Shown one piece after another: positions 4,208-24,427 of a stretch of DNA of 32,000 nucleotides (position 1 is its first letter; each line of letters opens with the position of its first letter). The DNA comes from an uncultured Chloroflexia bacterium (lineage in GTDB: Bacteria > Chloroflexota > Ktedonobacteria > Ktedonobacterales > JADMIN01): assembly GCA_963718915.1 (NCBI GenBank), contig CAVRAI010000007.1, positions 60,001-92,000 on the forward strand, given 5' to 3'. The notes below the pieces were generated by a model. That model searched no databases. It was given only the letters and a program-made list of their open reading frames with translations, and was not told the DNA's origin. The position numbers and the translations under genes are program-made.

Positions 4208-6158
4208 ATGCGGCACACAGGAGAGATGGATCGGGGCATGCGAGAGACACAGGCTGATGGCGCCGCTGAAATCGCCACTACTGCGCCATCGGCGGCATCT
4301 GCTGGCTCTGACGCGCCGGAGTCCCTTATCTTTGGCTGGCGCTGGGCGGATGCGCTGCTCGACTGGGCGTGGCGGCATCCTCGGCTCCCACTGGCGCTTG
4401 CCATGGTGGCGGGCATGCTGGCGCGGCTCGTTCTGGTCATGCGCTCGAACGCCCTGATCGACGGCGACGAGGCCATGGTTGGCATCCAGGCCGAGCGCAT
4501 CCTGCATGGCGAATTCCCTACGTATTTCTACGGCCAGGCCTACATGGGCAGCCTGGAAACCTACCTCATCGCCGCGCTCTTCCGCCTGTTCGGCCCCTCA
4601 GCCTGGGCAATGCGCGCCGTACCCATCCTGCTCTCGCCGCTGCTGGTCTACCTTACCTGGCGGCTGACGTATGCGCTGCTGCCGCGTCATTCGCGCGCCA
4701 CACCGCTGCTCGCCGGATTAGCCGCGTTCGTCGCCGCCGTCCCACCCCTCTACGACGCCGTAACCGAGTTGCGCACCTGGGGCGGGCAGATCGAGGTGTA
4801 TATCATCAGTCTCGCGCTGCTCCTCGCCACCGTCGAACTGGCGCGGCGGCTACGCGAAGGGGCGGGCGGCGCCGAACTGGCGCGGCGCTGGGCCATCTGG
4901 GGATTCCTAGCGGGGCTGGGCATCTGGGTCAATCCCCTGATTGTTTACGCGCTTATCACCGCCGTCCTCTGGCTGGTGTTTCCCTACGCGCACCGGGCGT
5001 TTCCTGGACTACTGGCGCGGTTGCGCAGGAACGGCGATACACACCCTGAGACGCCCGCCGCTATCCAACCAGCGCGCGCCGCGACCATCCTCGCGGTGGT
5101 TCCGGGGCTGCTCGTCGGCGGATTGCCCGCGTGGCTCTATGCGCTGAGCCACTCTGGCGAAAACCTGCTGGTCTACCTCACCCAGCCTGCCGTTAGCCCC
5201 GCCGTTAGTGGCGCCGCGCGGCAGGGGCGGCTCGTGCTGGCGGGGGCGATCACGACGCACTACGCGGGCTGTATCGCGCCGCAAGTCTTCAACGGCATGA
5301 TGCCCGCTGAGCCGCTGCTCTACTGGCTGCCGCTCCGCCTGCTGTTGCTTCTGCCGCCGCTGGCTGGCATCCTCTGCGCCGTCTGGCTCCTGCGCCGCGC
5401 GAACGATGGCGCGGGCTGGCAGGTGCGCGGAGGGCTGCCGCTACTCTTTGCCGCCGTCATCACCGCCGTCTTCTGCCTGGGTACTTCAGCCTGGGCCGCC
5501 TCGAAGAACTGCGAGTACGATCTCGCCGGACGCTACGCCGTGCCGCTGGTGCTGGTCGAGCCGTTCCTGCTGCTGGCGCTCTTGCGCTGCCGCTCGCGTG
5601 GCCCACGGTGGACGGTTGCTGCGCCGTCCCGCGCTGCCGCTGAATGGGCAGGCGCTGGCGCGTGGCTGGCGGATCGCACTGCTGGCGCTGGTGCTTGGCG
5701 GCGCCATCCAGTTCGGCACGTATTTCGTCTCGGACATGCAGGCGGCGTTCCAGTCGCCGTTCTATCGCTACATTCGCCAGGATCAGAGCCAGCTCTATGG
5801 CTATCTCAAGACGCACGATATTCATTATGCCTGGTGCAATCACTGGCTCGGCAACATTGTCACCTTCCGCACCGACGGCGAGACGGTCTGCGCCGACTAC
5901 TACGATCAGGTGGTCAAGGGCGGGATTCAGCGACCGCCGGGCACGCTTCAAACCGTGAGCCAGGCCGACCGCCCCAGCTTCATCATCGCGCGCGTCAATC
6001 CGCATCCGATCCTTGCACAGGAGCTTGATGCCCAGGGCATCTCATACACGATCGTGGTGCTACCTCAGGCGGGCGTCACGATCATCACCCCGGCGCGCAC
6101 GGTAGACCCCGCGACGGTCATCGCTGGCCTCGCGCAGGACTACGGCGCGAACCAGTGA
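4208..6158 (+). pseudogene. GT-C / GT39-like (ArnT/PMT-type) polytopic membrane glycosyltransferase, reading frame broken near 5575-5645
   Basis: ORFs 4208..6028 and 5406..6158 are in different frames. The first ~455 aa are multi-TM with the loop motif IDGDEAMVGIQAERILHGEFPTYFYGQ typical of GT39-like enzymes. After about 5580 that frame decays into Arg/Ala-rich junk. The other frame reads protein-like (GAIQFGTYFVSDMQAAFQSPFYRYIRQDQSQLYGYLKTHDIHYAWCNHWLGNIVTF...) up to the stop at 6158. Confidence 0.6.
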
Positions 6159-6306: not shown

Positions 6307-6705
6307 ATGCCTAACGCTCAGCCGCATGGGCGCCCAGCGCTCAAGCTGACATCCAAGTGGGTACCGGCGTTCACGGCAGAAGACATGAAGGCCTACCTGC
6401 AAGGCGCCCCATCGTGCTCGTTGGGACCAACACTTTCTGGACAGCCTCCTACCGTTGAGTCGGTGGAATTCGTGACCTGTAAAGAACTGACCGACCGCTT
6501 GAACGTATATATTGGGCTGGCCGATGATGCGCTCGTCTGCTATGTCGTGCTGCGCGGTCCATTCAATTTGACGATGATGTCGCTTCCGCCAGGAGCTTAC
6601 CCGGGGCCTCACTTCAGCGAGACAGTCGAGGAAATCTACGACGCGAGTACAGGTGATCGGCTCGTGGGGGCCGCTGGCTCATTCAAGCCGAGACCAGGTT
6701 TCTAG
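6307..6705 (+). CDS. Hypothetical protein (132 aa)
   Basis: The ORF-track ORF 6169..6705 starts at a GTG inside the repeat. I prefer ATG 6307, preceded by GAAGGA at 6297-6302. No family recognised. It is visibly lower in GC than its neighbours. Confidence 0.45.
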   Translation: MPNAQPHGRPALKLTSKWVPAFTAEDMKAYLQGAPSCSLGPTLSGQPPTVESVEFVTCKELTDRLNVYIGLADDALVCYVVLRGPFNLTMMSLPPGAYPGPHFSETVEEIYDASTGDRLVGAAGSFKPRPGF

Positions 6706-6816
6706 GCAGACAGAGATGACACCTCTGATGACTTCCCACCAGAGATGTGAAGGCTGGGCGCATGAGCATTCTGCCAGAGTCAAGTCCCTTTTGGACTGAG
6801 CGCTAATGGGCGGCGC

Positions 6817-6843
6817 GGCAAGCTACCATGCTAGTGCATCGCG
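6817..6843 (+). repeat. Direct repeat copy 2 (GGCAAGCTACCATGCTAGTGCATCGCG)
   Basis: Matches 6171..6197 with one mismatch. It is followed by a 10-nt insertion TGATATACTG that is absent from copy 1, then by the shared AGAGCG. Confidence 0.8.
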
Positions 6844-6852
6844 TGATATACT
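6844..6852 (+). promoter_or_regulatory. Candidate extended -10 promoter (TGaTATACT) for the metG leader transcript
   Basis: A TGnTATACT-type element lies 43 nt upstream of the leader ORF ATG. The -35 is poor, which extended -10 promoters tolerate. Confidence 0.35.
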
Positions 6853-6894
6853 GAGAGCGATGAACGTTTCATAGATACCAATACAGGGACTTTC

Positions 6895-6990
6895 ATGACG
6901 ACGACCGTTCAGCAGCACACCAACAGCATGATGATGGAGATGGCCATGCGCACGCCGCGCGGGGCATCGTCCATGCTGTCTGCTCACTGA
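6895..6990 (+). CDS. Met-rich leader peptide (31 aa: MTTTVQQHTNSMMMEMAMRTPRGASSMLSAH)
   Basis: Hand-translated, since it is below the ORF-track size cut-off. AGGGA at 6884-6888 lies upstream of ATG 6895. Seven of 31 codons are ATG, five of them within 6928-6948. A terminator hairpin starts 18 nt after the stop, and metG follows. Confidence 0.45.
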   Translation: MTTTVQQHTNSMMMEMAMRTPRGASSMLSAH

Positions 6991-7007
6991 ACATCAGCGC
7001 GAGACCG

Positions 7008-7040
7008 GGGCCGCTCCGCGAGGGGGCGGTCCTTTTTGTT
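7008..7040 (+). terminator. Intrinsic terminator / attenuator hairpin upstream of metG
   Basis: GGGCCGCTCC (7008-7017), GCGA tetraloop, then GGGG(G)CGGTCC (7022-7032). About 10 bp, GC-rich, with one bulge and two G-U pairs. It is followed by TTTTTGTT and a second T5 run at 7045-7049, and lies 50 nt before the metG ATG. Confidence 0.6.
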
Positions 7041-7088
7041 GGCCTTTTTATCCGTAATCATCCATCGAGGAAAGCGAGCGAGTGCAGT

Positions 7089-8723
7089 ATGGCGAACACG
7101 ACGAGCGCAAAGAATGCCAGGAAAACGACCAGGCGATCAACGGCTAAGAAAGCGCCCTGGTACGTCTCAACCACCATCCCATACGTCAACGCCAATCCGC
7201 ATATCGGCCACGCGCTGGAGTATGTGCTGACCGACGCGCTGGCCCGCTACCATCGGCGTGTCGGGGACGATGTCTTTTTTCTGACCGGTACCGACGAGAA
7301 CGCGCTGACTAACGTCCAGAGCGCTGAACGCCTGGGCATCCCCGTAGCGGAGCTGGTCGAGCGCAACTCGACGCGTTTCCGCGAGCTGGCCGAGACGCTC
7401 GAAACGTCATTCGACGATTTCATCCGCACCAGCGCCGACCCGCGTCATACTCCCGGCGTCCACCGGCTGTGGGAGGCGTGCGTCCGGAGCGGTGATATCT
7501 ACAAGCGCCACTATCACGGGCTGTACTGCGTCCGCTGCGAATTGTTCTATCGCGAGGATGAGCTGGTGGATGGCCTCTGCCCGATTCACCATATCCCACC
7601 CGAGGAGGTCGAGGAGGAGAACTACTTCTTCCGCCTCTCACGCTACGCCGACCAACTGGAGCAATTGATCGCCTCAGATACGCTGCGGGTTGTGCCAGAG
7701 ACGCGCAAGAATGAGGTGCTCAGCTTCATTCGTCGCGGTCTGGAAGACTTCAGCGTCTCGCGCTCACGTGAACGCGCACACGGCTGGGGCGTTCCGGTGC
7801 CGGGCGATCCCGCGCAGGTGATCTACGTCTGGTACGACGCACTGGGCAACTACATCACCGCGCTGGGCTACGCCGACGATGGCCCGCTCTACCAGCGCTA
7901 CTGGCAGGAGAATCCCCGGCGTCTGCACGTTTTGGGGAAGGATGTCATCCGCTTCCATGCCGTCTACTGGCCCGCGATGCTGCTTTCGGCGCAGGTTCCG
8001 CTGCCGACGACGGTGCTGGTGCATGGCTTTATCACCAGCGGCGGCCAGAAGATGAGCAAGTCGCTCGGCAACGTGGTGGATCCCGCGCGGATTGCGGCGG
8101 ACTACGGCGTCGAACCGCTGCGCTACTTCCTCTTGCGCGAGATCAGCCCGTTTACCGATAGCGACTTCACGCTGGAGCGGTTTCTGCGCGCCTGTAATAC
8201 CGACCTGGCCGACCAGCTTGGCAATCTGCTCAACCGCACCATCAGCATGCTCCAGCGCTACACCGATGGCGTGATTCCCGCGTCCGGCCCGTTGACGTCC
8301 GCCGAGCAATCGCTCATCGCGCGGGCGCAAGCGCTCCCCGGCCTGGTGGATGTCGCCGTGCGGGCGTACTCGTCGAACGAGGCGCTGGCGGCCATCTGGG
8401 ATCTGATCGGGACGGCGAACCGCTACGTGGCCGAGACGGAGCCGTGGGCGCTGGCGAAGGCGCGCAAAGCGGGCGACGAGGAGGCGGCTCGGCGACTGGA
8501 TACCGCGCTCTACACGCTGGCGGAAACGCTGCGACTGGTGGCGCAGCTACTCGTGCCGTTCCTGCCGGGGACCGCCACAAAGATCGCCGCGCAACTGGGC
8601 ATCGCGCTAGACGACAGCGCACTGTGGGCCGATGTCGCCGTCTGGGGTCAGCTTCCGGCGGGGACGCGAGTCCAGCCTGGCCCACTGCTCTTCCGCAAGT
8701 GGGAGATAGTGGATGAAGCGTGA
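7089..8723 (+). CDS. metG: Methionine--tRNA ligase (class I aaRS)
   Basis: 544 aa. It has the HIGH motif (NANPHIGHALE), the KMSKS motif (GGQKMSKSLGN), WYDALGNYITALGY, a Cys-containing CP knuckle (CVRCELFY..LCPIH) and a short basic N-terminal extension. Confidence 0.93.
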   Translation: MANTTSAKNARKTTRRSTAKKAPWYVSTTIPYVNANPHIGHALEYVLTDALARYHRRVGDDVFFLTGTDENALTNVQSAERLGIPVAELVERNSTRFRELAETLETSFDDFIRTSADPRHTPGVHRLWEACVRSGDIYKRHYHGLYCVRCELFYREDELVDGLCPIHHIPPEEVEEENYFFRLSRYADQLEQLIASDTLRVVPETRKNEVLSFIRRGLEDFSVSRSRERAHGWGVPVPGDPAQVIYVWYDALGNYITALGYADDGPLYQRYWQENPRRLHVLGKDVIRFHAVYWPAMLLSAQVPLPTTVLVHGFITSGGQKMSKSLGNVVDPARIAADYGVEPLRYFLLREISPFTDSDFTLERFLRACNTDLADQLGNLLNRTISMLQRYTDGVIPASGPLTSAEQSLIARAQALPGLVDVAVRAYSSNEALAAIWDLIGTANRYVAETEPWALAKARKAGDEEAARRLDTALYTLAETLRLVAQLLVPFLPGTATKIAAQLGIALDDSALWADVAVWGQLPAGTRVQPGPLLFRKWEIVDEA

Positions 8724-9007
8724 CAGAGGTGCTACGCCATACGTATGATGATGTATCGATGCGATAGAGATTGAGGCGCATACTGAGAGAGTGTGCGCCC
8801 ATGCTCATGGTGTTCGTGACGTTGGCGGGACAGCATTTCACTCGCATGCATCCTCATCCACGGCTTCGCGTCAGCGATAAGGACATCTCACCAACGTCCC
8901 GGCACACTGCTCCATCGCTTCATGCCGCCTCGTCGCGCCCGCCGGCTCGATATTCACTCCGCGACGCTCAACCCCTGGCCAGTTGCTCACAAGGAGGATC
9001 CTTCACC

Positions 9008-12000
9008 ATGTCACTCAGCGGCAAACTTGAAACCTGGCGTAATGATCTCATTGATATGAGCCGCCGGAATCCGATGCTCTATTACAAGAGTGAAGGCTAT
9101 CGCGCCGCGGGCATTCAATTCCTTCCTGAAAGTCCAAGCGCGCTGTTTGCGCAACTCCGCGGTCGTCCTGGCACTGTTGCCCTCAGTGAGATCCCTTGCG
9201 CGCTCTCACCAGAAGACCTGGAACGACGTCCACTGAGCCTCAGGCTGCTCCGACTCTACCTGCGGGTGCGTGAGGATGAGCGGGATCGCGGCATCAGAAC
9301 CCTCTATCTGGCGTTTGGGGTGCTTGAATGGTATGAATCCCCATCCAGTCAGGAGGCGATACATTCACCGCTCATCTTCCTGCCGGTAAAGCTGGAGTAC
9401 AAACGGGCGACAGATTCTTTCACATTGAAATTTGTCGAAGACATCGAATGCGAAATCAATCCGACGTTACGTGAATATCTGAATTATGGATTCAAGATTA
9501 CTCTGCCCACCTTCAGCGAAGTGATCTCTGATGACCCTGATGTCCCGGTGACGCTTGACGCCATCTTGCGGGGAATCGGGGAGGCGCTGCCACAGCAGGG
9601 CGGGTCGCTTCAGGATGAACGCTGGACTATTCATCCTGAGGTACATCTTGGCAGGTTCGCTTTCCAAAAACTGGTGATGTATCAGGATTTGCGGCGCCAT
9701 GCCTCCGAGGTTCTAGCGCATCCTCTCCTTCAGGTATTGGGCGGTGAGGCGGTTCTGCCAGCGCCCACTTCCTGGTTGCCATCACCACGCGAGTTTGATG
9801 ACAACATTCATCCACAACGTGTCCTGGAGATTCTTGACGCCGATTCCAGCCAGCAGGAGGCTATCCAATGGGCCAAGGCTGATGTCAGTTTTGTGCTGAA
9901 GGGTCCGCCAGGAACCGGGAAGAGTCAGACCATCGCCAACATCATCGCGGTGACATTGGGGCAGGGGAAGAAGGTGCTCTTCGTCAGCGAAAAGATGGCC
10001 GCGCTCGATGTCGTGCGCACGCGACTTCAGCAAGTGGGCCTCGGCGATTTCTGCCTTGACCTTCACAGTTCACAGACAGACTCCGCGCAGAAGTCAGCGT
10101 TCTTCAACGCGCTTAAAACCTCGCTCGACGATGTTTCGCGACCACCAGAAGAGCGCAGTGACGGTAGTTGGGCGCTCCAGTCGTCGAACCTGGAGCGACA
10201 GCGCAGGGAACTGAACAGTTACGTGAGGGAATTGCACCAACCGCGCCAGCCGCTGGGGAAATCAGCATTCTGGGCATACGCCGAACTTGCCAGACTCGCC
10301 GACGCCCCTGACTTTGACTTTGCGATCCCAAACGTTGATGCGATAACTCCGGATCAGTTCGACGCGAAGCTACGGACAATCAACGCGCTTGATGCCTGTC
10401 GCGATGTGCTGGACACCTACGAAACGCATCCCTGGCGCGAGACGCGGGCCACGAGCCATTCACTGGAATTAGAATCGAACATTCGCGACCATTACACGCG
10501 CCTCTCGGCCAACCTGCGCACGCTGCATGACGCGCTTGCCGCGATGGTCAAACTGCTCGGAGAACACGCCGCCATTAATTTCGCCTGGATGGACTTTATT
10601 GTACGGCATGCGGAGGTGGTGTTGGAGAGTCCACTCCCGCTGGGCGCGTGGCTCAGCCGTGAAGAACTGGCGCGGCTCCGACCACAGGTGGCGGATATGG
10701 TTGCGCGGTCGCGGGAATATTTAGCGTGGATCGCTCAATTCACACCGGTATACAACCGCGCGTTGCTCGCCGAAGATCTGACGACGTTGCAAGAGTCGCT
10801 CAGCGAGGAAAACGCCCAGAAGATAGCCAGCCTGCGTGACGAGATGGAATCGCCCCGCGATACCGCGATTGCGCAGCATGACGAACTCGATAAGCGCCTC
10901 ACGGCTGCGAGCCGCGCACTGGCGGCCATTCCGCCAGTGGCCAATACCCTGGCGGAACTGTGCGGCGCTGAGCAACCAGAGACGTTAGGCGAGACGAAAG
11001 GATTGATCGCGCTTGCACGCCATCTCTCGCAGTCTCCCAATCCGCCATCTGAGTGGCTGAATCCATCGAAATTTGCTGTCGTGCGCGCGCTAGCGGCTGA
11101 AGCGCGGGAGCGCTATTGGCAGTGCGCGCAATTACGCGGCGCGCTGGAAGGTGTCTATCAGCCTCAGTTCTTCACACTCGATCTGCATGGTATGGCGGAG
11201 CGCTTCCGCACACAGTATCGCTCGTTTTTCCGTTTCTTGCAGACATCGTATCGTCGCGACATCAAGATGGCGCGCTCGCTCCTGCTGCCAGGACAGACGC
11301 GCACAGCGGCGCAGGTTGAGGCAGATCTGTATCAGGCTGTCAAGCTGCTCGATATGGAGGCGGGGCTAAACGAGAAACGGGTTGACTATGCGCAGACACT
11401 GGATCACTATTTCGATGGCGCGCAGACTGACTGGGAGCAGGTGACTGCTGCCCTACGCTGGGTGACGCAGCTTCACGAGTACCTGGCGGGTATTCCTGTT
11501 TCGTCGGCGATGGCTGCCCTGATAACTGGGCCAGCGAAAGCGTTGCGGGCCATGAACGCCACGCTTGATACACTCGCGCAACTGGTTGCGGCATGGGCGG
11601 ATGAGGAATCCTATTGTGTCAGTCGCGTGTGGGTTTCACGGCTTCTTCCTGGCATCATTATGTTCGATGATGCGGCGCCTGAGCAGGCGTGCGTGGCGCT
11701 TGATGCGCTTCTCAGTGACCTGCGGATATTCTGGCAGGCCGTTGACACCGTTCAACGCCACCGTCATATGCCCCCAGAGCCACACCAGCCTATGTCCTGG
11801 GTGAGCCTCCGCGCTGACGTAGCGCTCGCGCGAGCGATTCAAGCGTTCGAGACGCGCCTGACGGAGAAGGCCGACGAGTATTCCAGCGATTTCGGACGCT
11901 ACTTTACAGGTGTGACGACCAATTGGCAGGCCATTGATGACGCGCTGGCGTGGACAGAGCGTTTCCTGACTCACTACGCTGATCGCGCCGTGCCAGAGCC

Positions 12001-14092
12001 AACCCTGGCGCTCGTCACCGATCCCGAGAATACTGTCGGGCGTGATGAACTTCGCCAGGCGCTTACCATGCTCCAGCAGACGTGGCCACACATGGACGCG
12101 GAACTGACGTTCAGTGATACCGTCCTGGCGCGAACAGCGCTCAATAAGCCTGGGAAGACCTTCGAAACCACTCCCCTTGTGACCCTGGCTGATCATGTTG
12201 ATTTCCATCTGCGCGAACTTCCCGCGTTGCATCGTTGGCTCACCTGCCAGCAACGCCTACACCACTGTGGACAGGTTGGCCTGGACGGTTTCATCGCAAG
12301 CCTGATGCGTCACGGCCCGATTCCCCAGAACCTCGCGGCGATCTTCCAGCGCCGATTCTACAAGCTCTGGCTCGATCATGTGCGTAGCCAGTCGCCAACT
12401 CTCGCCCGCTTCCGGGGCGAGGAGCACTCAGTCGCGATTGACCGTTTCCGCAATCTGGACGCTGGTCATCTGACACTCGCCAGAAGGCGTTTGAACGCTT
12501 TACTGCGGCAACGCCGTCGCCATGCCTTTCAAAGCTCAGCGGGTAAACGCGCCGTGGCGCTCTCGCAGGCGGATCGTGCGCTGCGCCGAGAAGCGCAGAA
12601 GAAACGCCATAGCCCTATACGGGTGACTGTGCGAAAGGCCGCGCGCGCATTGCTCGAACTGAAGCCATGCTGGATGATGAGTCCGCTCAGCGTAAGCCTG
12701 TTTCTCGATTCGGCGGAGCAACTCTTCGACCTGGTCATTTTTGACGAAGCGTCTCAGGTCTGCCCGGAAGACAGCATCTCAGCCATCTTGCGCGGGAAGC
12801 AGCTCATCGTGGTGGGTGATCCAAGGCAGCTTCCGCCGACGCGCTTCTTCTCGAAATCACTGGCCGATGAAAGTGGTGATGAGGATGAGGAAGACGAGGA
12901 GAACGAGCAAAAAGAGCGTACTCAGAGTATCCTGGATGAGTGTCGCGCGTCATCGTTCAACGAGCGCAGCCTCGAGTGGCATTATCGCAGCGCCGACGAA
13001 GCGTTGATCGCGTTCTCCAATCACCACTTTTACGATGATCAGTTGGTGACTTTCCCCAGCCCGCTTGGCGCCACTGGGCAGGGTGTGCGCTTCGAGTACG
13101 TTGAGAACAGCAATTACCGGCGCGGACGAAACACCAACGAGGCCGCGCGAGTGGCGGACATTGTCTTCGATCACCTGCAACAGCATGAAGACCCCTCACT
13201 TGGCATCGTAGCGCTGAGCGCCGCCCAGCAGGAAGCCATCACCGAGGCGCTCGAAAACCGTATCAAGCGCGACCCACGGCTGGAGCCGTATTTTGATGCG
13301 CTGTTTATTGGCAAACCCGATGGCATCTTCATTAAGAATCTGGAAAGCGTCCAGGGCGATGAACGCGACACCATCATTCTGAGCGTGGGGTATGGACCAG
13401 ATGTTGATGGCAACATCTATAAACGCTTTGGTCCAGTCAATAATGCGGGCGGCGAGCGTCGTCTCAATGTCGCGGTGACACGCGCGCGCAAACAGATGAT
13501 CGTCGTCAGCTCTATGCGGGCAAGCGACTTGCCACCTCATATGGCCTCGCTCGGCGCTCGCACCCTGCGTGACTATCTGCTCTATGCGGAGGCGTGCTCG
13601 AATGGCGGCGCGCAAGCCGGGAGGCAGGCGCTTTCCGAGCAGTCTACAGCGAGCGACGAACGAGCCATGCGCCTGACGGAGTCGCGATTTGAGTCACCTT
13701 TCGAGGAGGCTGTCTACAACGCATTAACCGCTCGTGGTCTGATGCTCGATACACAGGTGGGCTGTTCAAGATACCGGATCGATCTGGCAGTGCGCGACCC
13801 AGAGCATCCCGGCGCCTATCTGCTGGGTATCGAGTGTGATGGCGCATCGTACCACTCGTCGAAGACCGCGCGCGACCGCGATCGCCTCCGTCAGTGGCAA
13901 CTGGAACACATGGGCTGGAAGCTGCACCGTATCTGGTCGAGCGACTGGTTTGCCACGCCAACTGTTGAGGTGTTGCGTGTTCTGGATGCCGTGGCTGAGA
14001 TTATGAATAGGCGAGCGGGCGGGGAAATTCGCCGTGGCCTTCAGGCTACGGTGGGCGCTCCCAACGACGACGATATTCAGGATGAAGCGTGA
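9008..14092 (+). CDS. Giant DUF4011-like / Upf1-DNA2-type SF1 helicase / Vsr-DUF559-like endonuclease fusion protein (1694 aa)
   Basis: The ORF-track ORF is 8771..14092. I trim it to ATG 9008, 9 nt after AAGGAGGA (8991-8998).
- N-terminus: LETWRNDLIDMSRRNPMLYY...YLAFGVLEW...LGRFAFQKLVMYQDL.
- Walker A: GPPGTGKSQT (from nt 9901).
- Motif II: IFDEASQV (DEASQ at nt 12743-12757).
- Other helicase motifs: VVGDPRQLPPT, WHYRS, QGDERD, LNVAVTRAR.
- C-terminal PD-(D/E)XK-like module: YRIDLAV...LGIECDGASYHSS...RIWSSDWF. Confidence 0.85.
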   Translation: MSLSGKLETWRNDLIDMSRRNPMLYYKSEGYRAAGIQFLPESPSALFAQLRGRPGTVALSEIPCALSPEDLERRPLSLRLLRLYLRVREDERDRGIRTLYLAFGVLEWYESPSSQEAIHSPLIFLPVKLEYKRATDSFTLKFVEDIECEINPTLREYLNYGFKITLPTFSEVISDDPDVPVTLDAILRGIGEALPQQGGSLQDERWTIHPEVHLGRFAFQKLVMYQDLRRHASEVLAHPLLQVLGGEAVLPAPTSWLPSPREFDDNIHPQRVLEILDADSSQQEAIQWAKADVSFVLKGPPGTGKSQTIANIIAVTLGQGKKVLFVSEKMAALDVVRTRLQQVGLGDFCLDLHSSQTDSAQKSAFFNALKTSLDDVSRPPEERSDGSWALQSSNLERQRRELNSYVRELHQPRQPLGKSAFWAYAELARLADAPDFDFAIPNVDAITPDQFDAKLRTINALDACRDVLDTYETHPWRETRATSHSLELESNIRDHYTRLSANLRTLHDALAAMVKLLGEHAAINFAWMDFIVRHAEVVLESPLPLGAWLSREELARLRPQVADMVARSREYLAWIAQFTPVYNRALLAEDLTTLQESLSEENAQKIASLRDEMESPRDTAIAQHDELDKRLTAASRALAAIPPVANTLAELCGAEQPETLGETKGLIALARHLSQSPNPPSEWLNPSKFAVVRALAAEARERYWQCAQLRGALEGVYQPQFFTLDLHGMAERFRTQYRSFFRFLQTSYRRDIKMARSLLLPGQTRTAAQVEADLYQAVKLLDMEAGLNEKRVDYAQTLDHYFDGAQTDWEQVTAALRWVTQLHEYLAGIPVSSAMAALITGPAKALRAMNATLDTLAQLVAAWADEESYCVSRVWVSRLLPGIIMFDDAAPEQACVALDALLSDLRIFWQAVDTVQRHRHMPPEPHQPMSWVSLRADVALARAIQAFETRLTEKADEYSSDFGRYFTGVTTNWQAIDDALAWTERFLTHYADRAVPEPTLALVTDPENTVGRDELRQALTMLQQTWPHMDAELTFSDTVLARTALNKPGKTFETTPLVTLADHVDFHLRELPALHRWLTCQQRLHHCGQVGLDGFIASLMRHGPIPQNLAAIFQRRFYKLWLDHVRSQSPTLARFRGEEHSVAIDRFRNLDAGHLTLARRRLNALLRQRRRHAFQSSAGKRAVALSQADRALRREAQKKRHSPIRVTVRKAARALLELKPCWMMSPLSVSLFLDSAEQLFDLVIFDEASQVCPEDSISAILRGKQLIVVGDPRQLPPTRFFSKSLADESGDEDEEDEENEQKERTQSILDECRASSFNERSLEWHYRSADEALIAFSNHHFYDDQLVTFPSPLGATGQGVRFEYVENSNYRRGRNTNEAARVADIVFDHLQQHEDPSLGIVALSAAQQEAITEALENRIKRDPRLEPYFDALFIGKPDGIFIKNLESVQGDERDTIILSVGYGPDVDGNIYKRFGPVNNAGGERRLNVAVTRARKQMIVVSSMRASDLPPHMASLGARTLRDYLLYAEACSNGGAQAGRQALSEQSTASDERAMRLTESRFESPFEEAVYNALTARGLMLDTQVGCSRYRIDLAVRDPEHPGAYLLGIECDGASYHSSKTARDRDRLRQWQLEHMGWKLHRIWSSDWFATPTVEVLRVLDAVAEIMNRRAGGEIRRGLQATVGAPNDDDIQDEA
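14009..14073 (+). repeat. Dispersed hairpin repeat, copy B (right half only), embedded in the 3' end of the helicase ORF
   Basis: aggcgagc..ggggaaattcgCCGTGGCCttcaGGCTACGGtgggcgctcccaacgacgacga matches copies C and D. The hairpin is at 14032-14051. Confidence 0.7.
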
Positions 14093-24094: not shown

Positions 24095-24354
24095 CGTGTC
24101 CTGCCAGTTCCAGGGTATTCACGTCCCTGTGGTGTAAGTCTAGTCCGAACAGGGGCGTCGCTCAAAGGGAATTGGCCCATATTTCTGCGATTTCTCGCAT
24201 CGCATATACGCAATTGGCCGCAAAAGGTGGCAACCGGCAGGGGCGACGACGCCTATCTGTGAAGTAGCGAACGGTATGCATTCGCGCCAGGATCGCACCA
24301 GGATAGAGTAGGGTCGGATCAATATGGGAACGGACGGAGAAGAGGGGGATGAGG

Positions 24355-24427
<73 letters not shown>

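Follow-up and report, generated by a model that had tools for sequence, protein, structure and literature searches.

The region upstream of metG, the gene for methionyl-tRNA synthetase (MetRS), in an uncultured bacterium of the Ktedonobacterales raises the question of whether a short ORF rich in methionine codons can report the charging of tRNA-Met to the gene behind it. MetRS is an essential enzyme and an antibiotic target. Leader-peptide attenuation is textbook knowledge for Trp, His, Phe, Leu, Thr, and Ile/Val; to our knowledge, no methionine-sensing leader-peptide attenuator is known. An initial annotation, made from the letters alone, had proposed an attenuator of this kind in a 32,000-nucleotide stretch of DNA, here called the window, and we followed up that proposal. 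All of the features described below lie on the forward strand, and positions are those of the window.

Elements between the promoter and metG

The regulated gene, metG, extends from 7089 to 8723 and encodes 544 aa. It had been placed at 7089 in the initial annotation, and the Pfam domains of its product, PF09334 (E = 1.6e-101) and the MetRS anticodon-binding domain PF19303, identify it as a real MetRS, which is 87 to 90% identical to the MetRS of Ktedonobacterales. Upstream of the gene, direct reading of the sequence located an extended -10 element, TGATATACT, at 6844 to 6852, from which transcription would start at about 6859. A consensus promoter scanner called no promoter at 6844 to 6852, because a good -35 element is missing there. 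The -10 element is nevertheless kept in relatives, which carry TATACT or TATAAT at an equal distance from the leader ORF, mostly with TGC before it, and several of which have TTGACG 16 nt upstream of the -10. Identity to five relatives was 0.89 for the -10 element and 0.60 for the adjacent 5' UTR. Further downstream, at 6885 to 6889 and 5 nt ahead of the leader ATG, lies the Shine-Dalgarno-like motif AGGGA; it is weak, and AGG-containing motifs precede the equivalent leader ATG in relatives.

The leader ORF itself (6895 to 6990) consists of 31 codons, MTTTVQQHTNSMMMEMAMRTPRGASSMLSAH, and ends in TGA, and its frame is kept in relatives. It contains ATG codons at 6895, 6928, 6931, 6934, 6940, 6946, and 6973, and all seven of its ATG triplets are in frame. 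Five of these form the putative regulatory Met cluster, ATG ATG ATG GAG ATG GCC ATG, at 6928 to 6948. Methionine makes up 1.7% of the residues of the six long ORFs of the window, and at this frequency the probability of at least 6 Met in 30 codons, as in the six internal Met of the leader, is 1e-5, while that of at least 5 Met in 7 codons, as in the cluster, is 3e-8. The leader is also the sole place in all six frames of the 32-kb window with at least 4 Met in 8 residues.

A terminator scan found, past the end of the leader ORF and ahead of metG, an intrinsic terminator at 7007 to 7040, with the stem 7007-7017/7023-7033, the loop GCGAG, and the T-run TTTTTGTT. Eight of the 11 pairs of the stem are G-C, the hairpin energy is -21.6 kcal/mol, and the identity of the terminator to relatives is 0.90. 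Its 5' arm constitutes segment 3 of the proposed attenuator described below. No promoter-like site was found by scan in the 50-nt spacer between the T-run and metG. Promoter, Shine-Dalgarno motif, Met-rich ORF, terminator, and metG thus follow one another in the order expected of an attenuator. The initial annotation had read the same parts from the letters, and it was accurate on each: TGATATACT and AGGGA are present as described, the 31-codon ORF with its seven ATG codons, five of them within 6928 to 6948, agrees with the ORF listing, and the G+C-rich hairpin with its T-run is the terminator recovered by the scan.

We then compared the leader with known RNA and peptide families. No T-box or SAM riboswitch was found by Rfam in the window leader and nothing reached a gathering score, in agreement with the earlier impression that no core of either kind is present; no known family explains the region. 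When positions 6700 to 7200 were searched at E <= 10, only four nonsense matches were returned, all with E >= 0.05 and far under their gathering scores. T-box hallmarks were likewise absent from the window leader, which has no specifier loop, no T-box sequence, and no match to RF00230 at E <= 10. The same Rfam search recovered, as a positive control, the T-box-like leader of another metG locus (L010) at 46 bits. At gathering scores, Rfam gave no match in 18 related loci, and the L010 leader was missed as well, because its 46 bits stand against a gathering score of 93. NCBIfam contains models for several named leader peptides; at E <= 10, it offered no family for nine of the leader peptides considered here, drawn from five types. 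No Met-sensing leader-peptide attenuator was found in the full-text literature searched, Rfam 15, or NCBIfam, a scope outside of which the survey of Lopatovskaya et al. (2010) falls.

Alternative pairings and the proposed mechanism

The predicted pairings of the leader RNA include structures that are mutually exclusive. One is a protector (anti-antiterminator, or 1:2) hairpin at 6907 to 6992, which consists of minimum-free-energy helices and carries Met codons in its 5' arm. Its helices are 6923-6930/6972-6979, 6939-6942/6965-6968, 6944-6945/6962-6963, and 6947-6951/6957-6961, with 6939-6951 and 6957-6968 making up the inner stem and with outer stems at 6907-6912/6987-6992 and 6914-6917/6981-6984. 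The 1:2 stem that had been drawn by eye was roughly right, although its exact pairs differ from these helices. The energy of the protector, -38.9 kcal/mol, was lower than that of shuffles (-29.2 +/- 3.3; z = -2.9, p = 0.01), and RNAalifold retained it in nine relatives, with few changes, which were G-C to G-U or compatible. The protector overlaps the putative regulatory Met codons at 6928 to 6948, and a ribosome stalled there would disrupt it, as in a classical attenuator.

The competing structure is the predicted antiterminator, whose 5' strand, segment 2 (CGCGGGGC...GTCC, 6958 to 6972), lies within the leader ORF. The pairing of 6958-6965 with 7013-7020 put forward in the initial annotation does exist, at a predicted -14.4 kcal/mol, and is extended by 6969-6972:7008-7011. 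The energy of the antiterminator duplex, -22.1 kcal/mol, compares with -18.7 +/- 2.7 in shuffled leaders, which are G+C rich (z = -1.2, p = 0.12); such comparisons with shuffles were significant only in the Rokubacteria-like and L147-type leaders.

The switch between the two structures was modeled on transcripts truncated ahead of the 3' arm of the terminator, with the footprint of a stalled ribosome masked on the Met codons at 6928 to 6940, four of the five in the cluster. The predicted probability that the terminator 5' arm is sequestered was 0.36 in the free transcript, rose to 0.82 to 0.87 with the footprint, and came to 0.38 when the ribosome was placed on the stop codon, a result that favors the alternative structures expected from the earlier reading. 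Under the footprint, segment 2 is predicted to pair with both 7008-7011 and 7013-7020, and when the leader was dinucleotide-shuffled 300 times, a single shuffle switched as strongly. Full-length minimum-free-energy folds, whether or not the ribosome was masked, always kept the terminator and gave no switch; such folds therefore cannot show one. Given this and a whole-leader fold z of only -0.2, the model rests on kinetic, co-transcriptional reasoning. Among other Chloroflexota, the in-silico switch was weak or absent in L006, L008, L082, L084, L011, and L083, and in L004 it appeared at the minimum-free-energy level only.

Our preferred reading, which we consider likely, is that the leader is a classical ribosome-mediated attenuator that reads charged elongator Met-tRNA and sets the transcription of metG. 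RNA polymerase would start a few bases past the -10 element at 6844 to 6852, a ribosome would load at AGGGA and the AUG at 6895, and the 31-codon leader would be translated while the polymerase advances. With Met-tRNA plentiful, the ribosome would pass the five Met codons at 6928 to 6948 and reach the UGA at 6988, and the protector would form behind it (6939-6951 paired with 6957-6968, together with the outer stems), allowing the terminator (7007 to 7033 plus the U-run) to fold and transcription to stop about 50 nt before metG. With Met-tRNA scarce, from low MetRS activity or low methionine, the ribosome would stall with a Met codon in its A site. The stalled footprint would hide the 5' arm of the protector and leave 6958 to 6972 free to pair with the terminator 5' arm at 7008 to 7020, so that the terminator would be blocked, the polymerase would enter metG, and the additional MetRS would close a negative feedback loop. 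MetRS charges the initiator tRNA too, and a severe shortage could for this reason cut translation of the leader and favor termination. This dependence on the initiator tRNA would be a design problem absent from the Trp, His, and Phe attenuators.

Met leaders in relatives and across 153 metG loci

Conservation of the leader was examined in the clade of the window. In Ktedonobacterales relatives, the frame and the start of the leader are kept and indels are of 3 or 6 nt. Two stretches, Met run to stop and stop to terminator, each had an identity to relatives of 0.95, compared with 0.60 in both the 5' UTR and the spacer to metG. The N-terminal part of the leader varies in length and sequence. Of the eight distinct relatives, seven have the Met cluster unaltered and the other (L164) has ACG at the first ATG; segment 2 was invariant in all nine sequences of the clade, third codon positions included. 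Where the same amino acid was encoded, 80 of 85 codons in the leader core were identical, versus about 70% in metG; this excess of synonymous identity points to a constraint at the RNA level on top of coding. The nine sequences contained no compensatory change in the antiterminator or terminator, because the core is almost invariant, and the RNAalifold terminator of the clade is unreliable because MAFFT misaligned the terminator 3' arm. A peptide homology search, with the 31-aa leader padded by 10 upstream in-frame residues as the query, revealed that the identical peptide and four variants already exist as nameless predicted proteins without a Pfam domain. All three of the loci that were retrieved for these five peptides had the homologue directly upstream of MetRS, and the leader ORF stays with metG even where the upstream neighbor differs. 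Both the Met-run ORF and the hairpin are thus kept in relatives, always adjoining metG.

The search was widened to 153 metG loci picked by the similarity of their MetRS to the enzyme of the window. A short upstream ORF with tandem Met (MM) was present at 75 of these, in several phyla, versus 2 of 153 on the reverse strand and 1 of 138 farther upstream; eight other residue doublets occurred in short upstream ORFs at 2 to 13 of the 153 loci. The comparison of related metG upstream regions therefore agrees with what the initial annotation had expected of its Met run. ATG triplets were distributed 98/1/3 by frame over 23 leader ORFs. Of 23 leader-bearing loci examined, 21 had a hairpin equivalent to the window terminator between the leader stop and metG; L108 had none, and the one in L103 was doubtful. 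Leader types distinct from one another, all of them with a hairpin behind the ORF, were found at Ktedonobacteraceae, Anaerolineae, Rokubacteria-like, and actinobacterial loci, and the residues that come behind the Met run recur in the different groups (MRTPRG, MRMPRG, MRGIPRAP, MMPRSRGR, and MGMDPPT). Covariation for the antiterminator was limited to the Rokubacteria-like group, where the leader segment, terminator 5' strand, and terminator 3' strand read A/U/A in L097 and L096 and G/C/G in L103 and L099. In 37 actinobacterial leaders, the 2:3 pairing was present in 99.2% of cells, versus 29 to 60% with the partner columns slid; no double-sided changes were found in their 1:2, 3:4, or 2:3 helices, because these stems are invariant. 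At the metG locus of a member of the Chloroflexia, L010, a full-length T-box-like match had AUG where the specifier should be, with 46 bits and E = 5e-9, under the Rfam gathering score of 93, and the T-box sequence motif was also present in L009, L087, L090, and L093. The L010 leader would place the same gene under tRNA-charging control in a sister lineage.

We see about an even chance that the window leader is one member of a large, undescribed, multi-phylum family of Met-codon leader peptides controlling metG, in the Chloroflexota (Ktedonobacteria and Anaerolineae), the Actinomycetota, and Rokubacteria-like bacteria, which would be the first class to read the charging of elongator Met-tRNA. 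The output would be a terminator in the Chloroflexota; in the Actinobacteria, it may involve an additional helix by the metG ribosome-binding site. In the Actinomycetota, the proposed family includes Streptomyces, Actinomadura, Streptosporangium, Amycolatopsis, and others, and its leaders have the near-invariant ending ...MMPRSRGR.

Several other explanations of the Met-rich leader were weighed against attenuation by Met-tRNA. Any slowing of the ribosome, whether by antibiotics or by an overall shortage of amino acids, might relieve termination, with the Met codons serving as no specific signal. Such a general stress sensor is compatible with the footprint model, which needs a pause anywhere in about 6925 to 6945, and uORFs that sense ribosome-targeting antibiotics have been reported. 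We judge it unlikely, since the enrichment is specific to Met (MM at 75 of 153 loci versus 2 to 13 for the eight other doublets), the product of the regulated gene itself charges tRNA-Met, and Met codons are common to leader types that otherwise look unrelated. The nascent peptide could instead be the sensor, its M-x-M-R-x-P-R-G motif (MMPRSRG in Actinobacteria) arresting the ribosome in response to a small molecule, for instance methionine or SAM, much as TnaC does with tryptophan. The recurrence of the residues after the Met run across groups would fit an arrest motif; however, these codons also make up the G+C-rich strands of the alternative helices predicted here, with conservation at their synonymous positions too, the loop codon of the actinobacterial hairpin is free to vary (S, R, L, A, T, Q, H, or F), the N-terminal part is variable in length and sequence, and no result here calls for a ligand. 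We therefore regard arrest by the peptide as improbable.

Nor do we favor the view that the ORF either encodes an independent small protein or arose by chance, that the terminator belongs to it, and that metG is transcribed from a separate downstream promoter and not attenuated. The presence of the peptide as a predicted protein in public databases and the unremarkable stability of the whole-leader fold (z = -0.2) are in its favor, but the 50-nt spacer ahead of metG holds no promoter-like site and is poorly conserved (0.60), the leader accompanies metG even when the upstream neighbor changes, Met-rich or tandem-Met short ORFs recur before metG across phyla and not on the opposite strand, and synonymous-site conservation shows selection at the RNA level; an independent gene is thus very unlikely. 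ThrRS binds its own mRNA at the thrS operator, and hairpins containing CAU could similarly offer MetRS a mimic of the tRNA-Met anticodon arm. The Met run does contain the anticodon triplet CAU, within two copies of CAUG, a resemblance only. No anticodon-like loop of 7 nt that would present CAU is predicted, the thrS-type mechanism involves no terminator with a T-run, and most clustered Met codons have G, A, or U before them. We rejected this operator, to which we give hardly any credence, on the grounds that the conserved triplet is an in-frame ATG, not CAU. Attenuation through charged Met-tRNA, as proposed in the initial annotation, is the reading favored by the Rfam searches, the modeled alternative folds with their shuffled controls, and the conservation in relatives and at 75 of 153 loci, and the window element is a probable leader-peptide attenuator of a new specificity, Met/metG.

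Significance and comparison with known systems

MetRS serves both initiation and elongation, and a sensor that is itself initiated with fMet-tRNA raises a question of design. If the reading as a family is true, it would account for the way in which lineages without a T-box adjust their MetRS level to the charging of tRNA-Met. Among the 153 metG loci, Met leaders and T-box-like leaders occur in different lineages, which would clearly exemplify two mechanisms with one regulatory role. Should the actinobacterial ...MMPRSRGR leaders act alike, they would regulate MetRS in Streptomyces and related genera. The Met-run ORF provides a simple signature for annotating such leaders, and the predictions of the attenuator are readily tested by reporter fusions.

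A close parallel in organization is pheM/pheST of E. coli, in which a short leader ORF rich in cognate codons is likewise followed by an intrinsic terminator and then by the aminoacyl-tRNA synthetase (aaRS) gene, and in which uncharged cognate tRNA leads to stalling, antitermination, and more synthetase. The two systems differ in amino acid and lineage, Phe in Proteobacteria versus Met in Chloroflexota, and have no sequence relationship; in addition, translation of the Met leader depends on the very enzyme that it regulates, since MetRS charges the initiator tRNA. The four-segment logic of the window leader, with regulatory codons in or just before segment 1, is also that of trpL of E. coli and its relatives, as is the sensing of a rare amino acid with a single codon, and the actinobacterial metG leaders have two tandem codons, MM, like the WW of trpL. 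However, the trp attenuator controls a biosynthetic operon and not a synthetase, and its stop codon lies between segments 1 and 2, whereas the window leader has its stop codon past segment 2 and at the base of the protector. The T-box (RF00230) found before metG or metS acts on the same gene, responds to the same signal of tRNA-Met charging, and has the same output of terminator versus antiterminator, but it reads the tRNA directly and without a ribosome, and the window leader has no T-box.

Attenuation of aaRS genes by leader peptides had been taken in the initial annotation as established for pheST, which is correct and is also cited in PMC1262725, but it is not confined to pheST: Seliverstov et al. 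(2005; PMC1262725) predicted classical attenuators ahead of trpS and of leuS in Streptomyces. These predictions resemble ours in being computational, in concerning aaRS genes of a Gram-positive, high-G+C lineage, and in combining a leader ORF with an antiterminator and a terminator. That survey of the upstream regions of aaRS genes in Actinobacteria reported attenuators only for trpS and leuS, a T-box for ileS, and nothing for metG (PMC1262725); unlike that result, a Met-codon leader here precedes metG in many Actinobacteria and in the clade of the window. Mycobacterial poly-Cys leaderless uORFs are reported to be cysteine-responsive attenuators of downstream genes (bioRxiv 10.1101/834739). 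They are, like the Met leaders, short upstream ORFs enriched in the codons of one amino acid, and they differ in sensing Cys, in residing on leaderless mRNAs, and in controlling no synthetase.

A Met-rich leader ORF upstream of metG

All of the elements that the initial annotation had listed on the + strand between 6844 and 7089 were found to be present. A -10 element (TGATATACT, 6844-6852) and a Shine-Dalgarno-like AGGGA (6885-6889) were read in the sequence, and the ORF listing gave a leader of 31 codons (6895-6990) encoding MTTTVQQHTNSMMMEMAMRTPRGASSMLSAH. This is followed by an intrinsic-terminator-like hairpin identified by a terminator scan (stem 7007-7017/7023-7033, loop GCGAG, tail TTTTTGTT) with a folding energy of -21.6 kcal/mol, and then by the MetRS gene, which starts at 7089, encodes 544 amino acids, matches PF09334 (E = 1.6e-101), and has a product 87-90% identical to MetRS of Ktedonobacterales MAGs, in keeping with a window from a Ktedonobacterales-like Chloroflexota genome. 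The leader Shine-Dalgarno is weak, and a promoter scan found no -35 at the leader promoter. The leader Met codons lie at 6895, 6928, 6931, 6934, 6940, 6946, and 6973, and every ATG triplet within the leader is in frame. Because Met makes up 1.7% of six long ORFs of the window, the chance of six Met in 30 codons is P = 1e-5 and that of five in 7 codons is P = 3e-8, and no second stretch with at least four Met per 8 residues was found in the six frames of the whole 32 kb. The leader Met cluster is a non-chance feature.

The leader was compared with known RNA and peptide families. The sole match in an Rfam scan of the whole window was a tRNA, and no credible match was obtained within 6700-7200; the leader is neither a T-box nor a riboswitch, in agreement with the initial annotation, which had seen no T-box or SAM-riboswitch core and suggested such a scan. 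No curated leader-peptide family (NCBIfam) matched it. The tRNA is a tRNA-Phe gene (anticodon GAA, 24353-24427, - strand) and is the only Rfam or ARAGORN match in the window.

Several neighboring features were also recorded. The second gene upstream of metG (+ strand) is present as two ORFs, 4208-6028 and 5406-6158, and in relatives (L163) is one ORF of about 640 amino acids, of which residues 27-433 match 4319-5536, and residues 470-641 match 5643-6158 in a different frame; the alignment indicates a frameshift at about 5537-5642, due to a pseudogene or to an error in the assembly. The 285 nt that separate metG from the following gene contain a promoter-like site (GTGACA, 18 nt, TATGAT; 8720-8773, + strand), which is overlapped by a tiny ORF, ATGATGATGTATCGATGCGATAGAGATTGA (MMMYRCDRD), a second MMM run beside metG, probably by chance. 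In the ORF at 8771-14092 (+ strand, 1,773 amino acids), DUF4011 is combined with AAA_11/AAA_12 helicase domains and, at the C terminus, an MTES_1575 endonuclease domain; its true start is likely ATG 9009, which follows GGAGG, rather than TTG 8771. This gene also comes after metG in at least one relative.

Predicted folding and the putative switch

The ribosome-free leader was predicted to form a long hairpin (6907-6992) with the Met codons in its 5' arm, comprising an inner stem (6939-6942:6965-6968, 6944-6945:6962-6963, and 6947-6951:6957-6961), a middle stem (6923-6930:6972-6979), and outer stems (6907-6912:6987-6992 and 6914-6917:6981-6984). Its energy was -38.9 kcal/mol, versus -29.2 +/- 3.3 kcal/mol for shuffles (z = -2.9). 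Stalling was modeled by ending the transcript just before the terminator 3' arm and masking 30 nt for the ribosome footprint. When the A site was placed on the Met codon at 6928, 6931, 6934, or 6940, the freed strand 6958-6972 was predicted to pair with 7008-7020, made up of the terminator 5' arm and part of the loop. The predicted folds were mutually exclusive, as the initial annotation had proposed to check: the stall mask raised the probability of upstream pairing of the terminator 5' arm from 0.36 with the ribosome absent to 0.82-0.87 at these four codons, and the value was 0.37 with the A site on 6946, the last clustered Met codon, and 0.38 with the ribosome at the stop codon. The switch size, obtained by subtracting the free or the stop probability, whichever is larger, from the stalled one, was 0.47 for the window, compared to -0.05 +/- 0.18 for 300 dinucleotide shuffles of 6865-7006, only 1 of which reached 0.47. 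The same switch behavior was obtained with this model for the metG leaders of four relatives (L001, L002, L003, and L081); several further Chloroflexota leaders showed it weakly or not at all.

The predicted folds thus agree with the four-segment attenuator logic first claimed for this leader. The antiterminator duplex, at -22.1 kcal/mol, was not clearly better than those of shuffled G+C-rich leaders (z = -1.2, p = 0.12), and no covariation was seen in the window's clade, where the sequences are too uniform. The terminator was always kept in the full-length fold, and the whole leader was not found to be unusually stable; the argument for an attenuator is therefore kinetic. A small transient hairpin, GCGCGAG (6998-7004) with CTCCGCG (7014-7020) on the + strand, could form before the terminator 3' arm is made; it shares bases with the antiterminator target, and all nine sequences of the clade retain it.

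Met leaders at other metG loci

Conservation of the Met-run ORF and hairpin in relatives, another check proposed at the outset, was found at eight loci adjoining metG: the closest metG loci (L001, L002, L003, L081, and L101) and three found by way of predicted leader peptides (L161, L164, and L166). At L003 and L166, metG has kept the leader though the gene on the other side differs. Between the window and five relatives, identity was 0.89 in the -10 element, 0.60 in the 5' untranslated region, 0.84 in leader codons 1-11, 0.95 between the Met run and the leader stop and again between that stop and the terminator, 0.90 in the terminator, and 0.60 in the spacer between terminator and metG. The leader N termini (e.g., MTTVQQHSNS..., MTTTVQQHNS..., and MVITTVIQQQTNSEN...) differ by whole codons, so the frame is preserved. 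In the leader core, 80 of 85 codons for the same amino acid were identical, compared to 66-72% in metG of the same genomes, so the core is under constraint at the RNA level and not only in its reading frame. In databases, the identical 31-residue peptide and four variants are unnamed predicted proteins, and all three variants with a retrievable locus directly precede a MetRS gene.

Other metG loci were sampled by MetRS similarity alone, taking the best 80 genome and best 80 metagenome loci, 153 of which extended 300 nt or more upstream from the MetRS match. Within these 300 nt, a short ORF with at least three Met in 8 residues was present at 25 of the 153 loci, compared to 1 of 153 on the reverse complement and 1 in the region 400-700 nt upstream; for tandem MM the corresponding counts were 75/153, 2/153, and 1/138, and eight other residue doublets gave 2-13/153. 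The leaders were of several types: MTTxSxxxMSMAMRSR... in Ktedonobacteraceae (L004, L011, and L083), ...MSMVMRMRGIPRAP... and relatives in Anaerolineae-like loci (L006, L008, L082, and L084), ...MAMGM..PPT... in Rokubacteria-like loci (L014, L097, L103, L131, L096, and L099), and, in Actinobacteria such as Streptomyces, Actinomadura, Streptosporangium, Amycolatopsis, and Streptacidiphilus, a highly uniform ...Q(V)MMPRSRGR or ...RMMPRRRGC. Of 23 leader-bearing loci examined, 21 have a stable hairpin between the leader stop codon and metG; none was found in L108, and the L103 call is doubtful. The window leader appears to be part of a widespread, hitherto unannotated set of metG leaders.

Two of these types bear on the pairing. 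In the Rokubacteria-like group, the strand that directly follows the Met codons (GCCCACCCG) and the terminator 5' strand (CGGGTGGGC) are complementary; L103 and L099 instead have GCCCGCCCG and CGGGCGGGC, with both partners of the pair altered, and across L097, L096, L103, and L099 the terminator 3' strand co-varies too (CCCAC... versus CCCGC...). This three-way correlation is what an antiterminator/terminator pair would predict. The actinobacterial consensus, ATGATG-CCCCGC-nnn-CGGGGCC...GAGGCCCYG-loop-CGGGGCCTC, gives a predicted compact arrangement of protector (1:2), antiterminator (2:3), and terminator (3:4) in which the loop codon varies freely. Its 2:3 pairing holds in 99.2% of cells versus 29-60% with partner columns slid, and double-sided changes are lacking because the stems are invariant.

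The actinobacterial ORF lies about 100-170 nt upstream of metG at L019, L024, L029, L030, L033, L041, L044, L047, L048, L052, and about 45 further loci, with a near-invariant end (...Q(V)MMPRSRGR* or ...RMMPRRRGC*) and the DNA ATGATG-CCCCGC-nnn-CGGGGCYGC-TGA, followed by the hairpin CCGAGGCCCYG...CGGGGCCTCG. No Rfam or NCBIfam entry for this MMPRSRGR/MMPRRRGC leader and no description in the literature was found. In actinobacterial alignment A2, a conserved block 3' of the hairpin, CGGAGCC(CC), can pair with GGTTCCG adjoining the metG Shine-Dalgarno and start codon (columns 117-123 with 150-156; e.g., L147, about 960-1000), in 86.9% of cells versus at most 50% with partner columns slid. The block can alternatively pair with the 3' arm of the hairpin, which suggests a possible extra translational layer at actinobacterial metG.

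A different leader was found upstream of metG in the Chloroflexia locus L010, where 2647-2916 is a full-length T-box-like match (46 bits, E = 5e-9) that a standard Rfam search misses, since the gathering score is 93. We infer AUG at its specifier position (GAA-AUG-A). The T-box sequence motif also occurs upstream of metG in L009, L087, L090, and L093. With both Met leaders and T-box-like leaders inside Chloroflexota, metG in this one phylum seems to be linked to tRNA-Met charging through two distinct devices.

Proposed mechanism and relation to known attenuators

Taken together, these results make it probable that the window element is a Met-tRNA-sensing leader-peptide attenuator of metG. The candidate has the structural features of a classical attenuator, its antiterminator being a predicted one. 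A ribosome stalled at the leader Met codons would favor the antiterminator, and one passing freely to the leader stop codon would allow the protector hairpin and then the terminator to form. Because MetRS charges the initiator tRNA too, a severe shortage could reduce leader translation and tip the system toward termination.

Other readings are less likely. A general sensor of translation stress does not account for an enrichment of Met only, before a MetRS gene. Arrest by the nascent peptide is very unlikely: M-R-x-P-R-G-like residues do recur, but it is their codons that supply the G+C-rich sides of the alternative helices, synonymous sites in them are conserved as well, and the codon in the loop varies without constraint. 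A separate small gene that ends in a terminator of its own fits poorly with an ORF that travels with metG and with a terminator-metG spacer that is poorly conserved and contains no promoter-like site. An anticodon mimic bound by MetRS is unlikely because the conserved triplet is an in-frame ATG, not CAU.

If the element is a Met-sensing attenuator, what is new is the amino acid specificity, within a well-known kind of regulator. A full-text literature search returned no description of a Met-codon leader or upstream ORF for metG; priority is not fully excluded because one relevant survey of aminoacyl-tRNA attenuators (Lopatovskaya et al. 2010) lay outside the comparison. A 2005 actinobacterial survey of aminoacyl-tRNA synthetase upstream regions reported nothing for metG and predicted attenuators for Streptomyces trpS and leuS (PMC1262725). 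The working mode proposed here is the same as that of these predicted trpS and leuS attenuators and of the pheM-pheST attenuator of E. coli.
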